Shown here: positions 1-36,182 of the stretch, piece after piece
Numbering within the stretch: position 1 is the first letter of the stretch
How the letters are laid out: the number at the start of each line of letters is the position of its first letter
IMG/VR virus record: IMGVR_UViG_3300042524_000214
Location: 1 to 38,662 of that record
Origin: a virus
Taxonomy: Duplodnaviria > Heunggongvirae > Uroviricota > Caudoviricetes
Reading direction: 5' to 3' (one strand)
Length of the DNA stretch: 38,662 bases
Position numbers and translations under genes: made by a program
The notes under the pieces: generated by a model
What the model saw: only the letters and a program-made list of their open reading frames with translations
Database searches by the model: none
What the model was told of the DNA's origin: nothing

Positions 1-3000
1 TATTGTAAGGATAATTGGAATACAATATGTCTTTGTCAACAGTTTCTGTTTCTCTATACTTACGCATATCATATAACAGTCCTGAGGCTACTACACTTCT
101 ATCTAAACTAATATCTCCTCTAAATATTTCGTAACCAACTATTTTGTCTCTATCAGATTGTGTTAATAAGTTATTATCAACAGCAATATCTAAAAATAGA
201 TTTATAACTGTTTCATCTATTGTTACACCCAATGGAAATATGACTGTATTACCAAATTTAGCTTGTGGTAAGTCATACATAAAAGGTGCTACACTATTAT
301 CCGGAAATTTAAAATGCCTTATATTTCTACAAGTAAAATCGGCTACTTTTTTAGTTTCCCCATTCCATGGCTCTGTCTTAAATAAGTAGTTCCCGTTTAT
401 CGTAGCTGCACTATCTGTAAACACATCTTCAAATTCTTTTAGTATATCAATGTTTAAAGCTCCTTGAGTTACAAGGTTAGATAGTTTAGCTTTGTTTATT
501 TTTAAAGTTGAGGAATCAAATAACTCTGGGTTATCTGGATACTTCTCTGTACTTTCCCAATATGCAAAACTGCCCTTTTCAAAAGGAAACACTTTACATG
601 ACTGAGCAATAGGTTGTTCAAATTGACAAATAGTCTTATATGTACAAACCTTTTTTAAATATATTGCATCCCAAGATACTTCTACTCTTGAGTTTTCTGG
701 GTACCTTTTAGATACAGTATAACAACCATCTGTAGGAGATGCTATATATCTTACTTCTGGAGTATAGTTTTCAATAGGGCTAGTCCAAGAAAAATCTGCA
801 CCAGCATTGGTGTCAACAGTTTTTGTATTTATAGGTGTATCTATTGTTATATAATAGTCTCCTGAGTTAAACCAAGTTGCTGGAGGTAATGGTATTATCG
901 CACCGGTACTTCCCCTAGTTATTTCTACTGAACTTAATACTTTTTTTATATAAAACATCTCCCCTACAGAAACATCAACTAAAGCTGAGTATATAGCTGA
1001 AGGAGTTGTACAACTTTTAAAAATAGACATTCTAACAAGAGTGTTATCTCCTATATTTATATCATCATCACCATCGGCATCCTTTTGTTTAGCTATATCA
1101 ATTATGAACTCTGTAAGTGATTCTGTTTTACCTTTAAACCACAAAGCATTAGTATGAAGTTTTGTGTCAAATTTACTTGTGGTAGATAAAGTGAATGGGG
1201 TAGTTGTCTTAGTTGTTAATAAATCATTTAAAACTGTACTATACTTATAGTTATTAAAATAAGCTGTTGCATTATTTTGTGATGTGTCTGGATTATATAT
1301 TATATCTTTTGCATATAAACAAAGCTCGTTTTGAAAATCAGAATCTCTTTCATAAACTGGGTAGAATACATCAGCATCAGTTGCATTTGGTATATAACCT
1401 AAAGGTAAATTCATATCTTTCTTAGGTGCACCTGGAGTTGTTCCTGGGTCATTACCTGTATAATCTATCTTATATATTTGACAAAGCTTTGCTGCTGTCA
1501 TTAAAGTATATTCTCCAGGAAAAATCTTTCTGATTGTCTCTGTAACTTCTCCTTCTATTTTGTCTATTAATATTTCACAAGTTGGTGTATCTGGTGTTTG
1601 GCAATTTAATCCCTCAAATAGTTCACCGTTTGCATTACAATCTGCACCTGGGTATGTTTGTGTCAAATAACTACAAATGTCTACATTATTGTCTGTAATT
1701 AAATATGTAGGGTCTTCTAAACAATCTTTAGCATGAAGGTCTATATAATCCGCTAAGTCTGTATACCCAGTGTTATCCAATGGTATTGTAATCTGCCCAC
1801 TAGGTACTATTTCTCCCACACCAACTAAAGGTGTTTCGCAAATTCTTGTAATCTCTTCAAATACTGTTTCTGTTTGTATTGCTTCACTAGAATCACAAAA
1901 CCCATCGTCTTTTGTTGCTGTGTTATAGTATTGCCATCTGTAAACTCTTTGTGTAGAGTTACAGGAAACTTTATTTTCTAGTATAGATTTTATATCACTA
2001 CTGTCTGCGTAACGCTCTGTAGGAACTCCCCCAGAAACAACCTCTTCAAAATCATAAACATTGTCTGGTCGTAGTGGGTCTTGTTCTTTTGGTACTCTAG
2101 CTATAAAAGGATAGATAGAAGATTCATATCCCCCATCAAATAAAAATCTTATACTAAAAGGTACTATTTCGTCTCTATTGTAACCTCTGTTTTGGTATCC
2201 TAAAACACCGTCATCATATAAATCTTCTTTTCCTATTGTAGTTTGCCATTTTAGAAACTGCCCCAAAAAGTTTATTACTGGTTGTAGGTTAAGTTCCTCT
2301 TTTACATCTATCCCGTATTGAAATAAAATATTATTAGAGGCAGTTAATCCTTCTGTTCTTTCTACGTGGAGTTTGTCAACAAGTATTTTATCAACCGATG
2401 TTGCTATTTTATTTTGCTCAGTTGTGTATAAAATAATATTGTCGTTTATGGTATGTAAACCTTCTACAAAATATCTTGAAGCTCCCTCTATATCAGCAGT
2501 TTGTATTACTACTACTTTGTAGTGGGTGTACCTTTTATCTAAATTAAAGACATCTAACTTTATTGCATAGTTAGTCCTATCAGCCAATTCTGGCTGTTCT
2601 AATATATTGTTATTTTTATCAAATACTGCTATAGGTTGTGTTATAGAGTAGTAAGGAGAAATCTCATTACCCCCTGCATCTGCGTAAGCTAGTAAAAACT
2701 CATACATACCCATTTTTAGCCTACCTCCTAATTCTAAGGAAGAAGCTTTTATTTCTGGTATTTGATAAAGTTTAAATATTCTTAGCTCATTGAAGTCTAT
2801 ACAACTTGTTGGATAATCTGGTTGACAAGGTACGTTTTGTATATAGTAATCCCCTATATTGGTAATATCAATATGTCTCGGTGGATTTAGGTTATCAGTG
2901 AAGTAAGTGTTTTTTCCAGTTTTTTCATTTTTGATAACTATTTTTTTTATAGGGTATTCTTTATCAAAGTTAAAACCTAGTTTTTTATCTATATAAGCCT

Positions 3001-3493
3001 GGTCTGTATAGTGTAGACAGACTGCTGGTGTAACAGAGGTATCCAATGCGTACTCATCTGATATTAGAGTGTGGTAAGCATTCGGGTTAAGTGGGTTTTG
3101 TGGTAGTTGTTCTAAAGGTGTTGCTAATTCTTTTATCTCATCACAACCATTACCGCACAACGCTGTTATGTCTTGTAAATTTATTACGTTTTGGTTGTCT
3201 TCTATGTACCCAAATTCCCCTACCCCAGTTGTTGGATTTACCAACATTACATAGGTATCGTTAGATAACAAATCATTCTCATACCCTATTACTACAAACC
3301 CTGGCTTATACCTTGTTATAAGCATATTAGACCTCTCGTTTGTAATGTTTAGACTATTACCACTTTCTGTCTCTACATTGGCGTTAAAAGCATGCGTGTA
3401 TTGTGTTTCATCTAACTGTGAAGGGTGAGTATCTTTATTCATCCCAACTTTCGCTAAAGAAATATTCACTTTATTGTTTGGTTGTTCTGCCAT
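1..3493 (-). CDS. Tail muzzle / tail stabilization protein (P22 gp10-like, crAss-type), 3'-partial, >1164 aa
   Basis: Not in the ORF track because it has no stop inside the window. ATG at 3493 (MAEQPNNKVNISLAKVGMNKD...). I read the frame by hand over 1-2760 and 3200-3493 and found no stop. It has crAss muzzle-type motifs GGRLKMGMYEFLLAYADAGGNE, GYNRDEIVPFSIRF, FAYWESTEKYP, IRHFKFPDN and IFPLGVTID, and follows a ring gene as in crAss-like genomes. Confidence 0.88.
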   Translation of the reverse strand, partial: MAEQPNNKVNISLAKVGMNKDTHPSQLDETQYTHAFNANVETESGNSLNITNERSNMLITRYKPGFVVIGYENDLLSNDTYVMLVNPTTGVGEFGYIEDNQNVINLQDITALCGNGCDEIKELATPLEQLPQNPLNPNAYHTLISDEYALDTSVTPAVCLHYTDQAYIDKKLGFNFDKEYPIKKIVIKNEKTGKNTYFTDNLNPPRHIDITNIGDYYIQNVPCQPDYPTSCIDFNELRIFKLYQIPEIKASSLELGGRLKMGMYEFLLAYADAGGNEISPYYSITQPIAVFDKNNNILEQPELADRTNYAIKLDVFNLDKRYTHYKVVVIQTADIEGASRYFVEGLHTINDNIILYTTEQNKIATSVDKILVDKLHVERTEGLTASNNILFQYGIDVKEELNLQPVINFLGQFLKWQTTIGKEDLYDDGVLGYQNRGYNRDEIVPFSIRFLFDGGYESSIYPFIARVPKEQDPLRPDNVYDFEEVVSGGVPTERYADSSDIKSILENKVSCNSTQRVYRWQYYNTATKDDGFCDSSEAIQTETVFEEITRICETPLVGVGEIVPSGQITIPLDNTGYTDLADYIDLHAKDCLEDPTYLITDNNVDICSYLTQTYPGADCNANGELFEGLNCQTPDTPTCEILIDKIEGEVTETIRKIFPGEYTLMTAAKLCQIYKIDYTGNDPGTTPGAPKKDMNLPLGYIPNATDADVFYPVYERDSDFQNELCLYAKDIIYNPDTSQNNATAYFNNYKYSTVLNDLLTTKTTTPFTLSTTSKFDTKLHTNALWFKGKTESLTEFIIDIAKQKDADGDDDINIGDNTLVRMSIFKSCTTPSAIYSALVDVSVGEMFYIKKVLSSVEITRGSTGAIIPLPPATWFNSGDYYITIDTPINTKTVDTNAGADFSWTSPIENYTPEVRYIASPTDGCYTVSKRYPENSRVEVSWDAIYLKKVCTYKTICQFEQPIAQSCKVFPFEKGSFAYWESTEKYPDNPELFDSSTLKINKAKLSNLVTQGALNIDILKEFEDVFTDSAATINGNYLFKTEPWNGETKKVADFTCRNIRHFKFPDNSVAPFMYDLPQAKFGNTVIFPLGVTIDETVINLFLDIAVDNNLLTQSDRDKIVGYEIFRGDISLDRSVVASGLLYDMRKYRETETVDKDILYSNYPYN

Positions 3494-3504
3494 TGGTTTT
3501 TATA

Positions 3505-4368
3505 TTAAAGATTAGGGAACATTCTTTCAAATCTGTTTGTTTCCGCAATCATTTTCCGTTTAAGTTTTTTATCCCAGTTTCCTAAACCTTCCATCTTAAC
3601 TTGGGTCATAGCTAATCCTAGGTATTCTTTTTCTTGACCTTTTATATATTGAAGTTTGTTTATTAAATTAACATCATCATCATTAATCCAAAGACCTTCC
3701 AGTATCTTTCTTTTTGCGTAATACATCAAGTACTCTTGAAGACTTCTTACATCTGGAATATAAATATCCCCCAACTCATCTGTAGGAAGAGCATTGTATT
3801 GCATGTAGATAAAACCATTTTTAAAGTTTGTCTGAAGTATGTTGCCTAGAATATTAATTTCGTACTGTGAGGAAGCTGTAAGACTTTGTTGTATGTTCTT
3901 ACATCCCGGTGCACAAAACTCTTTCTTAAAACCTTTAGTTAGCTTTAAAAAAACGGGTTCTCTGTAATGTATGTTTGTTACTCTATCTTTGAAAAAAACT
4001 TTCTCTGATACTGTTTTGTAGTTTTCCTGTTTATGCGACTGAGATTGATTATCCCACACATAATTTGTTGTAGTGCTTTGTTTGTAAAATTGTGAGTCTT
4101 GTACATACTCTCTATCTTCAGAGTGTTCTCCTTCCCAATCTCCTTGTTTGCATTTAACAGCTAAGTGTAGTGTCCAAAAATCCTCAGGTAATTCTACTTT
4201 ACCCTCTTGCACCTCTAATACTTTCTCCGTAAGGATAGTTACATTGGCACCAAACCTTTTTAACTCATTTTTAATCCACATATTTAAAGAGCGATAGTCT
4301 ATAAGACCACTTTCATCATATTGTCTTAAATCAGTCAAGATTTCTGCTATTAATTGTTTTCTCGTCAT
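3505..4368 (-). CDS. Tail ring / tubular protein (P22 gp4-like, crAss ring protein 1-like)
   Basis: 287 aa. N-terminal MTRKQLIAEILTDLRQYD, then VELPEDF, IYMQYNALPTDELGDIYIPD and LQEYLMYY. Lies directly upstream of the muzzle gene, as in crAss-like synteny. Confidence 0.75.
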   Translation of the reverse strand: MTRKQLIAEILTDLRQYDESGLIDYRSLNMWIKNELKRFGANVTILTEKVLEVQEGKVELPEDFWTLHLAVKCKQGDWEGEHSEDREYVQDSQFYKQSTTTNYVWDNQSQSHKQENYKTVSEKVFFKDRVTNIHYREPVFLKLTKGFKKEFCAPGCKNIQQSLTASSQYEINILGNILQTNFKNGFIYMQYNALPTDELGDIYIPDVRSLQEYLMYYAKRKILEGLWINDDDVNLINKLQYIKGQEKEYLGLAMTQVKMEGLGNWDKKLKRKMIAETNRFERMFPNL

Positions 4369-4380
4369 TTCTATATATGT

Positions 4381-4719
4381 TTATAGTATAGCTAATTTTT
4401 CGTGGTACTCCGCTTTTAAGGCTTCCCTTTCTTCTAAAATCTCTTTTGGTATTTCGGTGCCGCTAATTACCTTTTTTTGCACATGTGTTGATACTACATT
4501 GTCTATTTTTTTAGAATACTCTTCTCGTAGAACTTCTATTTTTTTAGATTTTATTTCCGCTAGCTTTTCAATATCTGCCCCTTCTATCCAAGAATTGTCT
4601 ACAAATTTTGGTATAGTTAAGTTACTAGGTATTTCCACTGTAGTACTTAATTCTCCTACTGCTACTGCAAATGGTGTTGCATACAATACAAAACCATTTT
4701 TGTCTATTACTATGTTCAT
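4381..4719 (-). CDS. Putative tail-fibre assembly/chaperone-like protein
   Basis: 112 aa. PKFVDNSWIEGA followed by a helical EIKSKKIEVLREEY segment resembles fibre-chaperone (Tfa/DUF4376-like) proteins. Lies downstream of a fibre-like gene. Confidence 0.45.
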   Translation of the reverse strand: MNIVIDKNGFVLYATPFAVAVGELSTTVEIPSNLTIPKFVDNSWIEGADIEKLAEIKSKKIEVLREEYSKKIDNVVSTHVQKKVISGTEIPKEILEEREALKAEYHEKLAIL

Positions 4720-4720
4720 A

Positions 4721-5272
4721 TTAGTTTATTTTTTTTAATATAACCCCTGTTGTTGTTAAAGTGTTTGTGCCTGTTATTTGATTAACTGAACCTACTACTA
4801 TTATATAATTATCTTTAGTTAGGTCTATTGTGTAGTTGCCATAAGTATTCCCCCAATTAAAATCACTAAAAAAAGAAATCAATTTATTGTTCTGAATCAT
4901 AATTTGAAGTATACTTCCATTAGATGCACCTAAATAACTATTATTATTAGTATAAAGACTAGAGTCTGAAACAGATAAAGGAGTGGCTCCAATTAGACTA
5001 TTAGACGAGTTTATATAAGTTCTTAATTGCGTATTAACAAAATTTTCTGTAAAATTCCAATAATTATAAACAAACAATTCTAAACAATCATTGTTTTTAA
5101 AAGTATTTGCAGGAATAGTTAAAACTCTGCTAATTACCTCTACATTTCCGCCTATAATAGGAATTGTAACAGTACTGTAGTCAGATACTTCAATTGAAGT
5201 CTTTTTGTTCTCTAGTCTGGTTACTTTTGCAATCAGATTTTTTACGTTTGCTTTTAGTTCAAGTGTTGTCAT
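4721..5272 (-). CDS. Putative small fibre/virion protein
   Basis: 183 aa. Short N-terminal coiled coil (LKANVKNLIAKVTRLENKK) followed by an N/T/I/S-rich beta-type domain. Confidence 0.4.
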   Translation of the reverse strand: MTTLELKANVKNLIAKVTRLENKKTSIEVSDYSTVTIPIIGGNVEVISRVLTIPANTFKNNDCLELFVYNYWNFTENFVNTQLRTYINSSNSLIGATPLSVSDSSLYTNNNSYLGASNGSILQIMIQNNKLISFFSDFNWGNTYGNYTIDLTKDNYIIVVGSVNQITGTNTLTTTGVILKKIN

Positions 5273-5280
5273 AATTTTTT

Positions 5281-5844
5281 TTATATATCGTTACCTATTT
5301 TTCTTAGTTTGTTGAAGAATAAAGAAGCATTAAAGCTGTACTTTTTTCCAGAATTTAATTTGTTACAAAGCTCTTTTTTTATAGCTCTACTAAAACTATA
5401 ATCAAAAACCCATGGTCTTAGCAAGCTGTCTTTTCCTATTGGTACGAAAGCTATGTTATATATTATATTGTCTGTTTTTGTATTTATTTTAAGTTCTCCT
5501 GTTTGTCTACTGTGGGTTAACTTCTTTTTCATTTCTTGTATGATTCCAAAGTACCCTAGCCCATCTAAAAATATTCCCCCACTAGCCTCTGTTAGTTTTT
5601 CTCCGGCAATTCTATAGAACTCAGATATTATTTTTCCGTGTTCTACATAGTTAGCTACATCTTGTCTATTAGCTAGTTTAGAACTCTCTTTATAATACTG
5701 GTATGCTTTGTGGTCTGTTATCGAAAAGCTGCCTCCTAAGACTCCTATTGTTTGTTTCCTACCTCTCCATCTTCTACTAAACTTAAAAGCTTTTTCTGAA
5801 AGGTTATTACTGCTTTTCGTTGTTGTTTGAATTTGGGTTTTCAT
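5281..5844 (-). CDS. IHF/HU-like protein (crAss tail-region IHF homolog)
   Basis: 187 aa, basic. AYQYYK...IISEFY...GGIFLDGLGYFGII...FDYSFSRAIKKEL...GKKY pattern. Sits between two ring genes, as crAss IHF-like genes do. Confidence 0.65.
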   Translation of the reverse strand: MKTQIQTTTKSSNNLSEKAFKFSRRWRGRKQTIGVLGGSFSITDHKAYQYYKESSKLANRQDVANYVEHGKIISEFYRIAGEKLTEASGGIFLDGLGYFGIIQEMKKKLTHSRQTGELKINTKTDNIIYNIAFVPIGKDSLLRPWVFDYSFSRAIKKELCNKLNSGKKYSFNASLFFNKLRKIGNDI

Positions 5845-6481
5845 CTCTAGGTATTTGCTTAGACATTGCTATTTCTTTTATGGTCTCGCCAACAATAGCT
5901 TCTTCTAATTTATCTGGTACATTAAATTCATATTCCCAAAGACTCTTACATTCATCATTATCTTTGCATCCACATCCTTCTTCCAAAGAATCTATTTCCA
6001 TACTAATTAAGTACAAACTGATTAATTCAATTTCTGTATCAAGTAAATACAAATAGCCATCTTTAACATAGAAATAAATGTAATCCGATTTCTCTACTCT
6101 ATTTTTATCTCTTCTGTATTGAGAAGGGGTGATTGGTTTAAATTCTTTTTCTCCGTCTACTGTAATTACTTCTTTTAAAGAACTACCGTATCTGCTATAA
6201 ATTAGTTTTGGTAATTTACATTTTGATTTCATTATTGATTTGCATCTTCTGAATTCTAAAATATCACATCTAACTACATCTACTGACTCCATTTCAAAGC
6301 AGTCTAATGTTTTGTATAGGTTATCTTCTCTAAACAAGCTTCTGTCGTTTAGTTTTTGTGAAATTAAAAAAGTAGCTTTTTGTTTAGCTACATGTAGTAT
6401 ATATCTACGGGATATTCTATCGTCTTTACTTATAGAGTTTAATCCATTTCTTACTCTAGATACTATTTCAGCGTTAGTCAT
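5807..6481 (-). CDS. Tail ring protein (crAss ring protein 2-like)
   Basis: Track ORF 5807..6502 starts at a TTG inside the promoter. The ATG at 6481 (MTNAEIVSRVRN, 224 aa) is the likelier start. DDRISRRYI, CKLPKLI, YFYVKDGYLYL and FNVPDKLEEAIV fit crAss ring proteins. Confidence 0.7.
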   Translation of the reverse strand: MTNAEIVSRVRNGLNSISKDDRISRRYILHVAKQKATFLISQKLNDRSLFREDNLYKTLDCFEMESVDVVRCDILEFRRCKSIMKSKCKLPKLIYSRYGSSLKEVITVDGEKEFKPITPSQYRRDKNRVEKSDYIYFYVKDGYLYLLDTEIELISLYLISMEIDSLEEGCGCKDNDECKSLWEYEFNVPDKLEEAIVGETIKEIAMSKQIPRDENPNSNNNEKQ

Positions 6482-11431: not shown

Positions 11432-12274
11432 TTATGCTTGTTGTTCTACAACGTCTTGCCCCGGTAAAGGTCTCTTTTTATCTACTGGAAGTACCTCTAT
11501 AATTTTTTCTAATCTGCCTTTAGCAATAATTAAATTGTCTAATACTGGTTTTAAGTTTGTATAAAGTCTTTGTCTATATTCTGATACCCCTAATACCCCG
11601 GTAGTCTCATACATAGTTACTAGTTCTTTTGTTGCCTCAAGCACGCCTGATTTATTTAGCGTTTCCAATAGAAATAGTTCTCTATCTATAACTACGGACA
11701 CCCCTAAAGTTTGTTTTTTTATTGAGGATAATCTTCTAATAGCTCTTTCTGCATTTAGTATCTCCCCTTCTATTTTATCTAATCCCTCTTTTAATTTAAT
11801 AGTTGTTGCTCCAACTTCTCTTAGGTATACCTCTTCAAAAATATTTTCCTCTATGGTGATTATATCTAATGTATAACTAGAGTCTTTTTTTGGTGCTTCT
11901 GTAAAGTAGAAACTCGTAAAAATATAAGGTGTTTGTCCGTTTGCTACTCTATTTAATATAAAGTCATTTAATAATTCATTATCATCTGATATTGTAACAA
12001 ATGATGTTTTTTTTCCATCAATGACTAGAGATAATGATAGACTAAAATATACTACTTGGTCTAATAGTTCTGGTACGTCAAAACTTAATGACTTAGATAA
12101 GTTTTTTTTATTTACTTTTCCTATTTTTTTTACTAATATCTCTCCAAAATCATTCCAAACAAGTATGTCATAGTCTACTATAGAGGACATGTTGTCTAAT
12201 GCTCCCAAATTAAATTCTGGGTGCTCGTAGATATTTATGTTTAATTTTTTTGTTTTGCTGTCAGAACTAATCAT
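11432..12274 (-). CDS. Hypothetical protein (tail region)
   Basis: 280 aa. Beta-rich N-terminal half and helical/coiled-coil C-terminal half. No motif recognised. Confidence 0.6.
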   Translation of the reverse strand: MISSDSKTKKLNINIYEHPEFNLGALDNMSSIVDYDILVWNDFGEILVKKIGKVNKKNLSKSLSFDVPELLDQVVYFSLSLSLVIDGKKTSFVTISDDNELLNDFILNRVANGQTPYIFTSFYFTEAPKKDSSYTLDIITIEENIFEEVYLREVGATTIKLKEGLDKIEGEILNAERAIRRLSSIKKQTLGVSVVIDRELFLLETLNKSGVLEATKELVTMYETTGVLGVSEYRQRLYTNLKPVLDNLIIAKGRLEKIIEVLPVDKKRPLPGQDVVEQQA

Positions 12275-12275
12275 T

Positions 12276-12668
12276 TTATTTAAAGTTTTTTATTGATGTT
12301 ACTATACCGTTTTTTATTGATGCTTTACTGTTACCGAGTATAAATGTACCTGTTACTCCTCTTTGTTCCGAAACTATCCTATCTAATTCAGATATTTTTT
12401 GTTCCATTATTTCTATAATTCCTATTAAAAACTCTATAGCATCATTATGCGTAGTTGTCTTTTTAATACTTTTAAGAATCCTATCTGTATGCTTTGTTGA
12501 TGCTACTTGATTTTCTATGTCATATAGTGTTAACTCTTTGGTTTCTTTTACGGTGCCCCCCTCGGATAAAAATTTTACGTATTCTTTATAAGCTGGGTTA
12601 ATGTCCTCCATTATAAGCCTTTCTCCATCTACAGCTATTGTGCCTTGTCTATTTATAGTATATTCCAT
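12276..12668 (-). CDS. Putative tail-fibre-associated protein
   Basis: 130 aa. YKEYVKFLSEGG resembles fibre-chaperone N-termini, and GVTGTF...IKNGIVTSI resembles tail-protein C-terminal motifs. TAATG coupling to the upstream fibre gene. Confidence 0.45.
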   Translation of the reverse strand: MEYTINRQGTIAVDGERLIMEDINPAYKEYVKFLSEGGTVKETKELTLYDIENQVASTKHTDRILKSIKKTTTHNDAIEFLIGIIEIMEQKISELDRIVSEQRGVTGTFILGNSKASIKNGIVTSIKNFK

Positions 12669-32395: not shown

Positions 32396-32680
32396 TTAAT
32401 ATTTATCCTGTATCTCTGAGATATTGTTTGTACCTGGTTGAAACCTAAACGTATGGAAGAAAAAAGATTCCACCATTCTTGAAATTAATCTTATCGTTAG
32501 ACAATTGTGCATTTGATATAATCTATACATATCAAATGTTAAGTTACTTACGAAATCTTCGTATTCGTCTAAGTAAGAAGTTGACACTATCTTTTCGGAA
32601 ACATCTTCCCAAACTAAATCGTAGAATTCCTCGTATGTTAATTCCTGGAACTCGTTGTATGAATAATCTTTTGTTGACAT
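32396..32680 (-). CDS. Small acidic hypothetical protein
   Basis: MSTKDYSYNEF... (94 aa). The track's longer start at 32770 runs through promoter sequence. Confidence 0.65.
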   Translation of the reverse strand: MSTKDYSYNEFQELTYEEFYDLVWEDVSEKIVSTSYLDEYEDFVSNLTFDMYRLYQMHNCLTIRLISRMVESFFFHTFRFQPGTNNISEIQDKY

Positions 32681-32705
32681 TTTTAAATATTTTTGGTTTA
32701 TGGTG

Positions 32706-32745
32706 CAAAGATACAAAATGCTTTTGATATTTCCAAAAATGTTAA
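32706..32745 (-). promoter_or_regulatory. Bacteroidota-type promoter with upstream TTAAC element
   Basis: TTAACATTTTTG, 20-nt spacer, TATCTTTG (32706-32713). Confidence 0.8.
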
Positions 32746-32753
32746 ATAAATAG

Positions 32754-32793
32754 TTAACTAATTTGGACATTTAAAATATTATATTTAATTTTG
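32754..32793 (+). promoter_or_regulatory. Rightward Bacteroidota-type promoter 1 (TTAAC class)
   Basis: TTAACTAATTTG, 20-nt spacer, TAATTTTG (32786-32793). Confidence 0.75.
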
Positions 32794-32813
32794 CAAAAAT
32801 ATTTTATAAAAAG

Positions 32814-32845
32814 CTTGCAGAATTAAAATATTATTTGTAATTTTG
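32814..32845 (+). promoter_or_regulatory. Rightward Bacteroidota-type promoter 2
   Basis: CTTG, 20-nt spacer, TAATTTTG (32838-32845). Confidence 0.7.
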
Positions 32846-32851
32846 CATTTT

Positions 32852-33140
32852 TAAATCATAAAATGGCGTGGGGCTACCTGAAAAGGTTCACGTTGCGGTG
32901 TAAAAACCTAAGCTAAATGGAAGAGGACATCATTTTTTGATGGAGACCGCCAGAGCATGGCTGTTTTAGGTTTCAGCCAAAGTTATACAAGTAGGTGTTC
33001 TAAAAACATAATGTCATCGAATAAGCAATAGGTCTTTCAATAACAAAACAAAAAATCTACAGTTGGTCTAATGGATTAGGTGTTTTTCCGCAACTGGTTT
33101 CCTTTCCTCTCTTTTAAAGAGGGGGAGGGGGGTGTTTTAT
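32852..33140 (+). ncRNA. Candidate structured ncRNA with pseudoknot (~290 nt)
   Basis: Lies between tandem promoters and a terminator, with no ORF over 24 codons. ACCT-GAAA-AGGT hairpin; GCGGT/ACCGC stem; GGCTG/CAGCC hairpin whose loop TTTAGGTTT is complementary to AAACCTAAG; CAGTTG/CAACTG stem. Confidence 0.6.
33098..33140 (+). terminator. Probable rho-independent terminator
   Basis: Pyrimidine arm TTTCCTTTCCTCTCTT pairs with AAGAGGGGGAGGGGGG (G-U pairs work only on the plus strand), followed by TGTTTTAT. Confidence 0.6.
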
Positions 33141-33233
33141 CCTTGTTTGTGTGTAGAGCAGTTGCAACTACTAGTAAGGGTATCAAACTGCCTAACCATA
33201 ATGTTAAATATTTATTAAATATTATGCTAATTA

Positions 33234-33265
33234 CTTGTGTATGTGAAACATAATTTGTACCTTTG
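33234..33265 (+). promoter_or_regulatory. Bacteroidota-type promoter of helicase
   Basis: CTTG, 20-nt spacer, TACCTTTG (33258-33265), 16 nt before the ATG. Confidence 0.75.
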
Positions 33266-33281
33266 CTTAAAATATTAAGAT

Positions 33282-34673
33282 ATGTATAAGTTAAGAAATT
33301 ATCAAGATGATTCTGTAAATGTAGGCGTTGAGATTTTAAGCAGTTCAAAAGCGAGAAGAGAATTATTAGTTCTTCCTACAGGAGCTGGAAAATCTATTGT
33401 CATAGCTAAAATTGTAGACCAGATAAATGAGCCTGTAATAATACTACAGCCCTCAAAAGAACTGCTTGAGCAGAATTATAATAAATTCATAAATGTTGGT
33501 GGAGAGGCTTCAATTTACTCTGCTTCAGCAGGAATAAAAGAAATCGGTCATGTTACTTTTGCTACTATTGGTTCTATTAAGAAAGAAATACAGAAATTAA
33601 AAAAATTAGGTAAAGTCAAAGTTATTATTGACGAAGCACATATAGGCGTAAAGTCCGGCTCACAATTAAGAACTTTCCTAAAAGAATTAGGCGTAAACAA
33701 TACACTAGGTCTTACAGCAACCCCTTTTGTTTTACAAAGTTCTATGAATGGTGCCGAATTAAAAATGCTAACAAAAATTAAAGGTAAGCTATTTACAACA
33801 ATAGCGTATGTTCATCAAATGAATACTATGTTGTCTGACAATTATTGGACACCAATTGAGTATAGAGTTATTGAGCAAGATGATGAGTTTTTGAAAGTTA
33901 ATTCTTCCGGTTCAGACTACACAGAAGACAGTATGCGTAAGTTTTACGAAGGTAATGACTTAAACTCACAGATTATAGACAATGTAAATTATCGTTTGTC
34001 TGAGGGCTCAAAATCAGTGCTAGTGTTCGTGCCAACTATACAAGAAGCAGTTTCTTTATCTTTAAAAATAGAAGGTTCCGAGGCAGTCAGTTCTTTAACC
34101 CCTAAAAAGGAAAGAGATAGGATTATAGAGGGGTTCAAGAACGGAGAAATACACGTTGTTATCAACGTGGGAATATTGACAACGGGTTTTGATTACCCGG
34201 AACTAGACACTATAATTTTGGCACGCTCAACAATGTCATTTGCACTGTATTACCAAATGATTGGTCGTGGAGTAAGAATACACGATGATAAAACAAAAAC
34301 TGTTGTCATTGATTTGAGTGAAAATTATAATAGATTTGGAAAGGTTGAAGATTTTACTGTAGACTTTGTAGAAGACTATGGCTGGGGACTTTTTAAAGGA
34401 GAAAGCCTTATTTCAAATTATCCAATTGAGGCAAAGCATAGACCACAAAAGAAAAATCTAGGTAAAAAAGTAAATGTAAACATCGCCACATCAGTAAATA
34501 CAGTAAAAGTTGGTGATAGCTTACTTCCAGTAGGTAAATATAAAAATAAATCAATAAGTTCTGTTTTAGCAGAGGATAAAGGTTATCTAGTATGGATGTA
34601 CGAAAACTTTACCTTTTACCCAAATCAAAAATGGCTAAAACTTGAAATAGCCCATTTGTTAAATTTAAGTTAA
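33282..34673 (+). CDS. SF2 DEAH-box helicase (RadD/YejH-like) with small C-terminal domain
   Basis: LPTGAGKS, IIDEAH, GLTATP, NVGILTTGFDYP and YYQMIGRGVR. C-terminal LPVGKYKNKSI...YLVW is a DUF3820-like motif. Confidence 0.9.
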   Translation: MYKLRNYQDDSVNVGVEILSSSKARRELLVLPTGAGKSIVIAKIVDQINEPVIILQPSKELLEQNYNKFINVGGEASIYSASAGIKEIGHVTFATIGSIKKEIQKLKKLGKVKVIIDEAHIGVKSGSQLRTFLKELGVNNTLGLTATPFVLQSSMNGAELKMLTKIKGKLFTTIAYVHQMNTMLSDNYWTPIEYRVIEQDDEFLKVNSSGSDYTEDSMRKFYEGNDLNSQIIDNVNYRLSEGSKSVLVFVPTIQEAVSLSLKIEGSEAVSSLTPKKERDRIIEGFKNGEIHVVINVGILTTGFDYPELDTIILARSTMSFALYYQMIGRGVRIHDDKTKTVVIDLSENYNRFGKVEDFTVDFVEDYGWGLFKGESLISNYPIEAKHRPQKKNLGKKVNVNIATSVNTVKVGDSLLPVGKYKNKSISSVLAEDKGYLVWMYENFTFYPNQKWLKLEIAHLLNLS

Positions 34674-34709
34674 AAAGTTTTAATATATAAATAATTTTTT
34701 GTACCTTTG
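34670..34709 (+). promoter_or_regulatory. Bacteroidota-type promoter of recA
   Basis: TACCTTTG at 34702-34709, weak -33 (TTTT), TTAA 32 nt upstream. Confidence 0.65.
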
Positions 34710-34730
34710 TACAGAATTAAAAAACTAAGT

Positions 34731-35717
34731 ATGGCAGAAGTAAAAGACCCATTATTGGACGTAATTGCTAGTATGGACAAACGTTTCGGAAAAGGGGCTG
34801 TAATCGTAGGAGACACAGTAATACAAACCGAAAGACAAAAAACAGGCTCACTAGGTATGGACATAATCACAGGTGGTGGTTGGGGAAAAGGTAGAATGGT
34901 CGAAATATTTGCACCGGAAAGCTCAGGAAAGACTACGCTATGTATTCACACAATGATACAAGCACAAAAAGATAATCCAGACCAAAAAGTTGCCTTTATT
35001 GATGCAGAGCACGCCTTTGATAGAAATTATGCAGAGCACCTCGGATTAGACATGTCTCAAGTGATTATATCACAGCCAGACAGTGGGGAACAAGCATTAG
35101 AAATAGCAGAAGCTTTGATAGCATCAGGTAAAATTTCAGTGTGTGTAATTGACTCTGTTGCAGCATTAACTCCAAGAGCCGAGATTGAAGGAGAGATGGG
35201 AGATTCTAAAATGGGACTGCATGCACGACTAATGTCACAAGCTTGTAGAAAACTAACTGGTGTTGTAAGTAAAACAAACACGGTTCTTCTTTGGACTAAT
35301 CAAATTCGTATGAAGATTGGAGTTATGTTCGGAAGTCCAGAAACAGTTCCAGGTGGAGAAGCCTTAAAGTTCTACGCATCAATTCGTGTAGATATGAGAA
35401 AGAGTAAAGGAGATGATGACAGTGATGGTAATAGAATCAATAGTAAAGTAAAAGCCAAAACTATAAAAAATAAATTAGCCGCACCTTTTCAAGTAACAGA
35501 ATTTGATATTGTATTTGGTGAAGGTATTGACAGAGCCAGTGAAATTCTAGCAATAGCAGAAAATATTGGGATAATCAAAAAAGGAGGCTCTTGGTTTAGT
35601 TATGGTGAAACAAAATTAGGACAAGGTGCTGCAAATGTAAAAGAACTTTTGAGAGATAACCCAGAATTATCTGATGAGATTGAATTCAAAATAAGAACCC
35701 ACTTTAATATTTTATAG
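34731..35717 (+). CDS. recA: RecA recombinase (bacterial type)
   Basis: APESSGKTT, IDAEHA, DSVAALTPRAEIEGEMGD and NQIRMKIGVMFGSPETVPGGEALKFYAS. ATG at 34731 preferred (328 aa). Confidence 0.95.
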   Translation: MAEVKDPLLDVIASMDKRFGKGAVIVGDTVIQTERQKTGSLGMDIITGGGWGKGRMVEIFAPESSGKTTLCIHTMIQAQKDNPDQKVAFIDAEHAFDRNYAEHLGLDMSQVIISQPDSGEQALEIAEALIASGKISVCVIDSVAALTPRAEIEGEMGDSKMGLHARLMSQACRKLTGVVSKTNTVLLWTNQIRMKIGVMFGSPETVPGGEALKFYASIRVDMRKSKGDDDSDGNRINSKVKAKTIKNKLAAPFQVTEFDIVFGEGIDRASEILAIAENIGIIKKGGSWFSYGETKLGQGAANVKELLRDNPELSDEIEFKIRTHFNIL

Positions 35718-36182
35718 ATGTCAGTATTAGGTTGGAATTATCAAGGTTATGACATAAACAGCATAACCGATATGCAAAGGTATTGCCCCAAAGTCTGGGG
35801 CTTTGTTTATAAGTTAACACTTAGAAAAAAGGGCACTTCTATAGTGGAGTTTGAGTACATAGGTAAGAAAAATGTTTACACAAAAAGAAAAAGGGTTTTC
35901 GGTAAAAAAGAAACTGCTGCTTTAGGGGACAAACGCAAAAAAGCTTATGAGCATGTAATTAAAGAGGGTGATTGGAAATCTTATGTTTCTAGTAACAAAT
36001 TTATAAAAGCCAACAGCTCAAAATTTGACATACATAGAGAAATATTACTTTTTTCAACAAACGATAATGACTTAACCTACCAAGAAGCAAAAGCAATTAT
36101 TTGTTCAGATGCTTTAGAAAATTGTAGGTTTTTAAATGACGGAGTTTCGATTAGGAGGTTTGGTAAAAAAATTATTGATTAA
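35718..36182 (+). CDS. GIY-YIG-family nuclease (T4 DenA/Seg-like small family)
   Basis: GFVY...YIGKK...GDWKSYVSSN...REIL...YQEA pattern of small phage GIY-YIG nucleases. Confidence 0.7.
   Translation: MSVLGWNYQGYDINSITDMQRYCPKVWGFVYKLTLRKKGTSIVEFEYIGKKNVYTKRKRVFGKKETAALGDKRKKAYEHVIKEGDWKSYVSSNKFIKANSSKFDIHREILLFSTNDNDLTYQEAKAIICSDALENCRFLNDGVSIRRFGKKIID

Follow-up and report, generated by a model that had tools for sequence, protein, structure and literature searches.

The stretch of DNA analyzed here (the window; 38,662 nucleotides [nt]) opens a 131-kb IMG/VR virus record (G000) of a freshwater, Bacteroidota-type phage and makes up its first 38.7 kb. Between a leftward gene for a 94-residue protein, which starts at position 32680, and a rightward helicase gene, which starts at 33282, it carries about 600 nt without a credible open reading frame (ORF). 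From sequence comparison, we propose with moderate confidence that the plus strand of positions 32850–33140 encodes a folded RNA of about 290 nt that is independent of neighboring genes, is abundant and acts in trans by binding a protein. This proposal is based on the strong promoters that the RNA has of its own, a putatively protective 3' hairpin, a compact fold with invariant unpaired bases, a lack of antisense targets and a siting next to transfer RNA (tRNA) genes in a related record (G001), as expected of a stable RNA. The RNA family was previously undescribed and is so far confined to uncultured phages with Bacteroidota-type promoters.

On the plus strand of 32850–33140, no ORF exceeds 24 codons, and no conserved ORF was found in the RNA region across the homolog alignment. 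A 24-codon ORF at 32957–33031 lacks its start codon in six of 13 close homologs, and the indels that the alignment places in it are not multiples of three.

A family of 17 RNAs from four phage lineages

Searching the whole window against the 4227 models of Rfam 15, a check named in the initial annotation of this DNA, gave no match at gathering score. Nothing meaningful appeared among sub-threshold matches either (E < 10), the top scores reaching 11–17 bits compared to gathering scores of 60–117. ARAGORN found no tRNA or transfer-messenger RNA (tmRNA) in the window; the phage's own genes for such RNAs lie elsewhere in G000, at 41 kb and at 71–72 kb.

Relatives of the helicase in viral contigs led to three loci with an alignable upstream region, and invariant-word scans together with a profile screen extended these to 13 distinct sequences, the close members. 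Two further scans and a covariance model (R1) added four divergent members, L236 (in record G001), L275, L278 and L220, which score 76–100 bits with R1 over their full length. The family presently counts 17 distinct members, the window and 16 others in IMG/VR phage contigs, which fall into four lineages. Proteins encoded alongside the divergent members are 25–47% identical to those of the window, with RecA at 45–47%. Within its own genome, the RNA gene is single-copy as judged by R1.

At 45 loci (L005–L049) of helicases that are about 40% identical, R1 gave no match, and most of these loci leave no space for the RNA ahead of the helicase gene. Likewise, blastn searches of the INPHARED cultured phages with the window, L275 and L220 versions as queries returned no homolog, and when metagenome_contigs and genome_contigs were scanned for the invariant motif of the P8 loop (see below), chance matches alone were obtained. 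Eight new loci came up in a scan for AAAAAA...GGATTNGGNGTTTTTCC; they were rejected, as they have no model match and look protein-coding. With the covariance model and the 17-member alignment, the family can now be searched for, and structure probing and partner pull-downs have a defined target.

Nine helices with compensatory changes

The single-sequence fold energy of the window RNA is not beyond chance (z −1.46), and the sequence alone is therefore no proof of an RNA. In the 17-sequence model-guided alignment, which was fitted to the covariance model and thus somewhat favors structure, 92.4% of the cells are paired and 39 of 54 pairs have changed on both sides. None of 500 shuffles reached this level of pairing and covariation, and slid controls, in which partners were moved by 1–3 columns, gave 35–50% pairing and 10–15 compensatory pairs. 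The 13 close sequences taken by themselves show 94.3% paired cells and 30 compensatory pairs out of 54, and compensations are already plain in unguided MAFFT alignments. Nine helices contain compensatory changes, namely P1, an inner P1 helix and P3–P9. G-U pairs are frequent among them, identifying the plus strand as the RNA strand. The elements of the fold, in order, are:

32865..32894, plus strand: P1, with an outer GGCGTG/CACGTT helix, an asymmetric internal loop (GGGCT on the 5' side), an inner ACCT/AGGT helix and a GAAA loop
32895..32950, plus strand: P2, GCGGT (32895–32899) with ACCGC (32946–32950), enclosing an invariant single strand and P3
32907..32926, plus strand: single-stranded block CCTAAGCTAAATGGAAGAGG, its core AAATGGAAG kept in 17/17 aligned sequences
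32928..32942, plus strand: P3, CATCA/TGATG, with all five pairs changed on both sides
32948..32955, plus strand: invariant block CGCCAGAG, unchanged in the 13 close homologs, GCCAGAG being kept in the divergent four
32958..32979, plus strand: P4, TGGCTG/CAGCCA, with a U-rich 10-nt loop; 99% paired, 4/6 pairs compensatory
32982..33049, plus strand: three-way junction P5–P7, in which P5 (GTTAT/ATAAC) encloses P6 and P7
32994..33018, plus strand: P6, within the junction, with a conserved A/U loop of UAAAUAAAUAAU type
33023..33036, plus strand: P7, within the junction
33045..33059, plus strand: A-rich linker (AAAACAAAAAATCTA), its AAAAAA run invariant in 17/17
33060..33096, plus strand: P8, CAGTTG/CAACTG, with a 25-nt loop; 97% paired, 5/6 pairs compensatory
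33097..33140, plus strand: P9, its 5' strand made up of pyrimidines only and its 3' strand rich in G (GAGGGGGAGGGGGG), then TGTTTT; terminator scan, 17 pairs (33097–33133)

The two P1 helices are paired in 99% and 97% of the cells, with two-sided changes in eight of ten pairs. The P3 stem is swapped for TGTATA/TATACA or other sequences in other lineages. Helices of the three-way junction are paired in 89% (P5), 96% (P6) and 92% (P7) of the cells, and 13 of their 15 pairs are compensatory. The fold drawn in the initial annotation had omitted this junction, while five of the helices that it did propose (GGCGTG/CACGTT with ACCT-GAAA-AGGT, CATCA/TGATG, TGGCTG/CAGCCA, CAGTTG/CAACTG and the 3' hairpin) all covary. 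Its GCGGT/ACCGC stem, our P2, is weak, with 83% of the cells paired and the C:G of the second pair broken in five of 17 sequences by C-to-A changes that are not compensated.

Two finer elements proposed in the same fold did not hold across the family. A 9-base-pair pseudoknot between 32904–32912 and 32965–32973 exceeds shuffled loops only in the window, L002 and L003 (−7.8 kcal/mol, p ~0.015); in the other ten close homologs, the duplex is at chance level. G-to-A changes in the pseudoknot loop of L110, L127 and L130 are uncompensated, and the 5' partner, CCUAAG, is missing from L236, L220 and L275. An inner CTAA-TGGA-TTAG hairpin in the P8 loop is confined to the closest relatives of the window.

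Among the close members, about 100 positions that are unpaired or lie in loops do not vary. Most prominent among the conserved unpaired blocks are AAAUGGAAGAG, CGCCAGAG, GUAG, CGAAU, the A6 linker, GGAUUNGGUGUUUUUCC in the P8 loop and the G strand of P9. Within the P8 loop, motif TGGATTNGGTGTTTTTCC (33072–33089) is invariant in the 13 close members, near-invariant in L236, L275 and L278 and absent from L220. A blind search for covarying unpaired columns recovered shared-ancestry signals only, 17 sequences from four lineages being too few to reveal tertiary contacts. For the candidate long-range pairings of GGAAGAG with UUUUUCC and of CGAAU with AUUCG, the positions are invariant or the pairing is broken in some clades.

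One tertiary module of known type was considered separately. The canonical 11-nt receptor of a GAAA tetraloop consists of CCUAAG together with UAUGG (bioRxiv 10.1101/2024.03.11.584472). The window has a GAAA loop in P1, and CCUAAG...AAUGG in the P2–P3 strand matches 10 of the 11 receptor letters. We nevertheless discarded this module, because the loop reads AAUA or UAAA in L066 and L160 and CCUAAG is absent in L236, L220 and L275.

A probable transcription unit separate from the helicase gene

Two TAATTTTGC boxes lie on the plus strand at 32786 and 32838, each preceded by TTTG about 20 nt upstream, in agreement with the initial annotation, which had described two rightward promoters pointing into a region devoid of ORFs longer than 24 codons. 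The nonamer box is enriched in the window, with 25 occurrences observed versus 10.7 expected. In Flavobacteria, the sigma-A −7 box spans positions −12 to −5 (PMC9723704), and this geometry places the predicted transcription starts near 32798 and 32850. The promoter elements and the spacer downstream of the RNA are:

32762..32793, plus strand: distal promoter, TTTG, spacer and TAATTTTG, with a predicted start at ~32798; a plus-strand box lies ~75 nt upstream of the RNA model start in 11/13 close homologs
32815..32845, plus strand: proximal promoter, TTG, spacer and TAATTTTG, with a predicted start at ~32850; the box lies at about −17 to −24 in 13/13 close homologs
33158..33191, plus strand: spacer hairpin GCAGTT...AACTGC, with a compensatory GCTGTT...AACAGC in L003; the spacer is otherwise unconserved
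33258..33266, plus strand: −7 box (TACCTTTGC) of the helicase's own promoter, from the motif scan

The tandem arrangement is present in 11 of the 13 close homologs, and promoter-like boxes are also found 5' of the RNA in L275, L278 and L220. In L220, where the homolog of the 94-residue protein gene lies upstream and is co-oriented with the RNA, that gene ends in its own terminator, which is followed by a promoter and then by the RNA. Together with the conserved promoters and the strong covariation, this bracketing bears out the earlier view of a dedicated non-coding unit that produces a structured RNA.

The separate helicase promoter that had been noted at 33258 also has a counterpart at each of 14 loci examined. 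Downstream of the RNA and ahead of the next gene, at a distance of 78–265 nt, a plus-strand box (TAnnTTTG) occurs in 13/13 close homologs and also in G001. A riboswitch or other cis-acting leader would be expected to have no promoter between itself and its gene; in these 13 homologs and in G001, one is found there. The RNA matches the helicase coding sequence in conservation, nucleotide identity among homologs amounting to 59–84% in the former and 61–73% in the latter, and to 23–50% in the spacer after the RNA.

Hairpin P9 and the end of the transcript

The 3' hairpin followed by a T run, which the initial annotation had described as G-U-rich, was recovered by the terminator scan, and judging from its sequence, P9 is likely to be the 3' end or the terminator of the RNA. 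Its center covaries (U:A in the window, UUA:UAA in L130, AAA:UUU in L181 and L236), and P9 is therefore a true RNA helix. The two strands behave differently. The 3' strand, AGAGGGGG-N1-3-GGGGGUGUU, is near-invariant across lineages and identical in L130 and L275, while the 5' strand drifts in sequence and length. Such asymmetry is partly expected, as G can pair with C as well as with U, but one would not expect the GUGUU that follows the stem to be invariant.

The U run that follows P9 is UGUUUU in the window and UGUUCU or, in L275, UGUUAG in others; other terminators of the genome have five to seven uninterrupted T residues. In L220, a separate U10 terminator is located about 90 nt beyond P9. 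A near-invariant G strand combined with a poor U run suggests that P9 may serve as a functional domain, whether or not it also terminates transcription. P9 was also considered as an instance of the phage's generic terminator; this was rejected, since the others combine a short C5/G5 hairpin with a long T run and the double G run of P9 has no counterpart elsewhere in the genome.

In about ten homologs (including L130, L127, L160, L066, L179, L004, L170 and L275), GUGUU(UU) is followed within 5–20 nt by its complement, (AA)AACAC, so that an extra small GUGUU/AACAC hairpin could form. This feature is absent from the window (33134–33160), L002 and L003.

Recombination genes are the constant neighbors

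Two genes downstream of the RNA were assigned as follows:

33282..34673, plus strand: superfamily 2 helicase, RadD-like (Pfam ResIII and Helicase_C; best solved relative RadD, E 1.4e-40)
34707..35717, plus strand: RecA (E 1.3e-102)

The 13 close members are fully syntenic, with the 94-residue protein gene pointing leftward and the RNA, helicase, RecA, GIY-YIG endonuclease and PhoH pointing rightward. In the divergent members, the RNA is followed by helicase and/or RecA and then by PhoH; in L275 and L278, RecA comes directly after the RNA. Throughout the family, the RNA shares its strand with the helicase or RecA gene, 110–320 nt upstream of which it lies. In G001, 18 tRNA genes form an array that directly precedes the RNA on its strand, the helicase, PhoH and a RecA-like gene follow it, and the RNA is about 5 kb from the divergence point of the gene arms, with the tRNA array in between. 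From the layouts of G001, L220 and L275/L278, we conclude that the constant neighbors of the RNA are the downstream recombination genes and not the divergence point.

The RNA had initially been placed at the switch between replication and structural modules. This siting is not constant, given the intervening tRNA array in G001 and the co-oriented upstream gene in L220, and the helicase resembles the repair helicase RadD and not a replicative one.

In G000, the cumulative GC skew has its minimum at 32–33 kb and its maximum at about 95 kb. Skew arms of about 63 and 68 kb diverge at the RNA locus, at the same point at which gene orientation switches.

Possible roles of the RNA

In the reading that we favor, host sigma-A RNA polymerase would transcribe the RNA from the two tandem consensus promoters, and would thus produce it in quantity and from the onset of infection. 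The transcript would end at or just past the P9 hairpin, which would also shield it from 3' exonucleases. The RNA would then act in trans, most likely by specifically binding a protein or serving it as a scaffold, in a ribonucleoprotein or as a decoy. In the phage genome, a search for antisense targets returned only scattered 9-mers, with no enrichment and no extended complementarity to phage genes; apparently, therefore, the RNA does not act by base-pairing with messages. The fixed site ahead of the RadD-like helicase, RecA and PhoH suggests that the partner belongs to that module, and the location at the end of the tRNA array in G001 fits a gene for a stable RNA.

Several points weigh against this proposal. 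The start, the end, the abundance and transcription itself are read from sequence motifs, and the protein partner is postulated. The U run behind P9 is short and not continuous, and the U10 terminator of L220 lies further on, so that the 3' end is uncertain and read-through into the helicase gene may occur. The constant site just upstream of helicase/RecA would also fit a role in cis or one linked to an origin, and the cumulative GC-skew minimum of the 131-kb genome lies exactly at the RNA locus.

Where an RNA of such size combines a complex fold with many invariant unpaired nucleotides, it has usually proved to be a ribozyme, a riboswitch or the core of an RNA-protein machine. New classes of RNAs with complex folds are rare, and each poses an open biochemical question. 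The present RNA has been retained, always ahead of recombination genes, in lineages whose RecA proteins share only 45% identity. It is possible, though unlikely, that it serves as a dedicated cofactor of the recombination/replication-restart module (RadD-like helicase, RecA and PhoH-like ATPase), either as a scaffold or guide for one of these proteins or by way of its G-rich 3' strand, which would seed an R-loop for recombination-dependent replication. Such a cofactor would amount to a new RNA-protein system in phage DNA metabolism and to the first RNA partner for the widespread phage PhoH.

Orphan phage RNAs with complex folds have precedents in GOLLD, ROOL and the stable RNAs of T4, the family itself being undescribed. 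Species 1 and 2 of T4 (rnaC and rnaD) are stable RNAs of phage tRNA clusters, abundant, folded and of unknown function. Like them, the present RNA is phage-encoded, small and folded and is neither a tRNA nor an mRNA, and its G001 homolog follows an 18-tRNA array. In contrast to them, it is about twice as long and has no nearby tRNA gene in its own clade.

GOLLD and ROOL are ornate phage-associated RNAs that form RNA-only multimers (PMC12286853). With RNAs of the GOLLD/ROOL/OLE type, the present family shares an orphan complex fold defined by covariation and a frequent association with phages or prophages in lake and gut metagenomes. It differs in length (290 nt versus 500–800 nt), in architecture and in having no Rfam match. 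Packaging RNA of phi29 (pRNA; RF00044) offers a further comparison, as a structured phage RNA with its own early promoter that is part of a protein machine, as the present RNA might be. Unlike pRNA, the latter has no Rfam match, neighbors recombination genes and not those for a portal or packaging ATPase, and shows no intermolecular loop-loop complementarity that we could identify.

The coincidence with the skew minimum raises the question of whether the RNA is instead a primer or activator linked to an origin, its G-rich 3' strand hybridizing to the C-rich template so that the resulting R-loop primes or opens the origin. ColE1 RNA II, the T4 oriF/oriG transcripts and the mitochondrial CSBII primer are models for such a function: in each case, a strong promoter drives a folded transcript with a G-rich segment that faces a C-rich template. 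Here, tandem strong promoters lie 5' of the RNA, the gene arms diverge at the locus, the G strand would give a very stable hybrid, and this strand is near-invariant across lineages with 45%-identical RecA while its pyrimidine partner drifts. We still give this alternative only a small chance of being correct. The skew switch coincides with the gene-orientation switch, which by itself can yield skew, and the link between RNA and divergence point is lost in G001, where the RNA sits about 5 kb away behind the tRNA array, and in L220, where the upstream gene is co-oriented. Moreover, the G strand is locked in a covarying hairpin, which argues that selection acts on the RNA helix itself; downstream of the RNA, the sequence is unconserved, with no iterons and no shared AT-rich or conserved unwinding element found; no antisense regulator is known at the locus; the adjoining helicase is not replicative; and eight further conserved helices are not obviously needed by a primer.

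A role in cis, in which the RNA would be the leading portion of a long early transcript and its fold, alone or together with a ligand or protein, would gate the passage of polymerase beyond P9 into helicase/RecA/PhoH as a riboswitch, an attenuator or a processive antitermination element, we consider doubtful. The locus does have the general appearance of such leaders: a structured 5' element with conserved junction nucleotides and with a hairpin and U run sits consistently upstream of a same-strand gene, termination after P9 may be partial in view of the weak U run, and invariant unpaired nucleotides in such number are often a mark of RNAs that bind ligands. However, the consensus −7 box that the downstream gene has of its own, in 13/13 close homologs and G001, intervenes, and the spacer is unconserved. 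Neither a conserved antiterminator nor any other conserved pairing in competition with P9 was seen in the alignment, P8 and P9 abutting without overlap. GGAAGAG can pair with any pyrimidine run, but a matching sequence is not conserved, and a hairpin of 17–20 base pairs is hard to out-compete. No known riboswitch class in Rfam matched, and in G001 the RNA is sited like a stable RNA gene, at the end of the tRNA array.

Even less probable is a catalytic or self-assembling RNA, that is, a new ribozyme or an RNA-only multimer that would do without a dedicated protein partner. The multi-helix fold, the three-way junction and the high share of invariant unpaired nucleotides would suit it; however, no ribozyme or ornate RNA family in Rfam matches, the RNA, of ~290 nt, falls far short of GOLLD or ROOL in length, no loop with conserved self-complementarity was identified, and a cleavage site is not inferable from sequence. 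A DNA element (origin hairpins or protein-binding repeats) or a small peptide is barely credible as an explanation. In its favor, the region is rich in inverted repeats, is flanked by divergent operons and contains the 24-codon ORF. Against it, many conserved G-U pairs would turn into C-A mismatches if the opposite strand, or a DNA cruciform, were the folded form, the ORF lacks its start codon in six of the 13 close homologs, and a promoter in front and a hairpin with a U run behind are both conserved.

Other features of the locus and of related genomes

The leftward gene next to the RNA is preceded by a promoter element of its own:

32705..32713, minus strand: −7 box (TATCTTTGC) of the leftward promoter for the 94-residue protein gene (start 32680), from the motif scan; clade-A homologs have a minus-strand box in the same place (~−155)

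A 124-codon reading of this gene is possible (minus strand, 32396–32770), but the true start is most likely at 32680 (94 residues, MSTKDY...), because homologs begin there and the leftward −7 box falls inside the longer reading. The sole match of the protein is phrog_38534, of unknown function; its L220 homolog adjoins the RNA in the opposite orientation. Between the divergent promoters, at 32741–32765, lies a block (GTTAAATAAATAGTTAACTAATTTGG) with a palindromic GTTAAC core that is kept in 11 clade-A homologs. It contains the −33 TTTG of the distal promoter, and it could also have a role as an operator.

Downstream, between RecA and PhoH, positions 35718–36182 of the plus strand carry a gene for a SegE-like GIY-YIG endonuclease (Pfam PF19835), likely a homing endonuclease, which the relatives have too.

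In Cellulophaga phage phi4:1 (KC821632.1, ~90.9–92.3 kb), a tRNA array, a gap and a helicase gene follow each other as in G001, with RecA further on. R1 did not match this tRNA-to-helicase gap, even with filters off. The gap, of 1.4 kb, contains ORF-poor segments flanked by promoter and terminator, along with a tRNA-like 3' end (GAGAGTTCGATTCTCTCC); these segments may be other unannotated RNAs.

In L309 (G001:13000-27000), the tRNA array directly upstream of the RNA homolog extends over positions 2003–6035 and comprises 18–19 tRNA genes, interrupted by an HNH endonuclease gene. Further downstream in L309, at 11595–12449, a gene matches the CBASS inhibitor Acb3 (Pfam PF25187, E 4e-37).

The genome of the window itself encodes a permuted, two-piece tmRNA at 71720–72105 of G000, with the tag DNVYQLGGVQLRAVA (ARAGORN). 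Three tRNA genes, Arg-tct and two Met-cat, adjoin or overlap it (G000 71453–72122; ARAGORN), and a further tRNA gene (Ser, anticodon act) is located at 41074–41150. Beside this permuted tmRNA and these tRNAs, the folded RNA points to a heavier reliance of these phages on non-coding RNA than current annotation shows.

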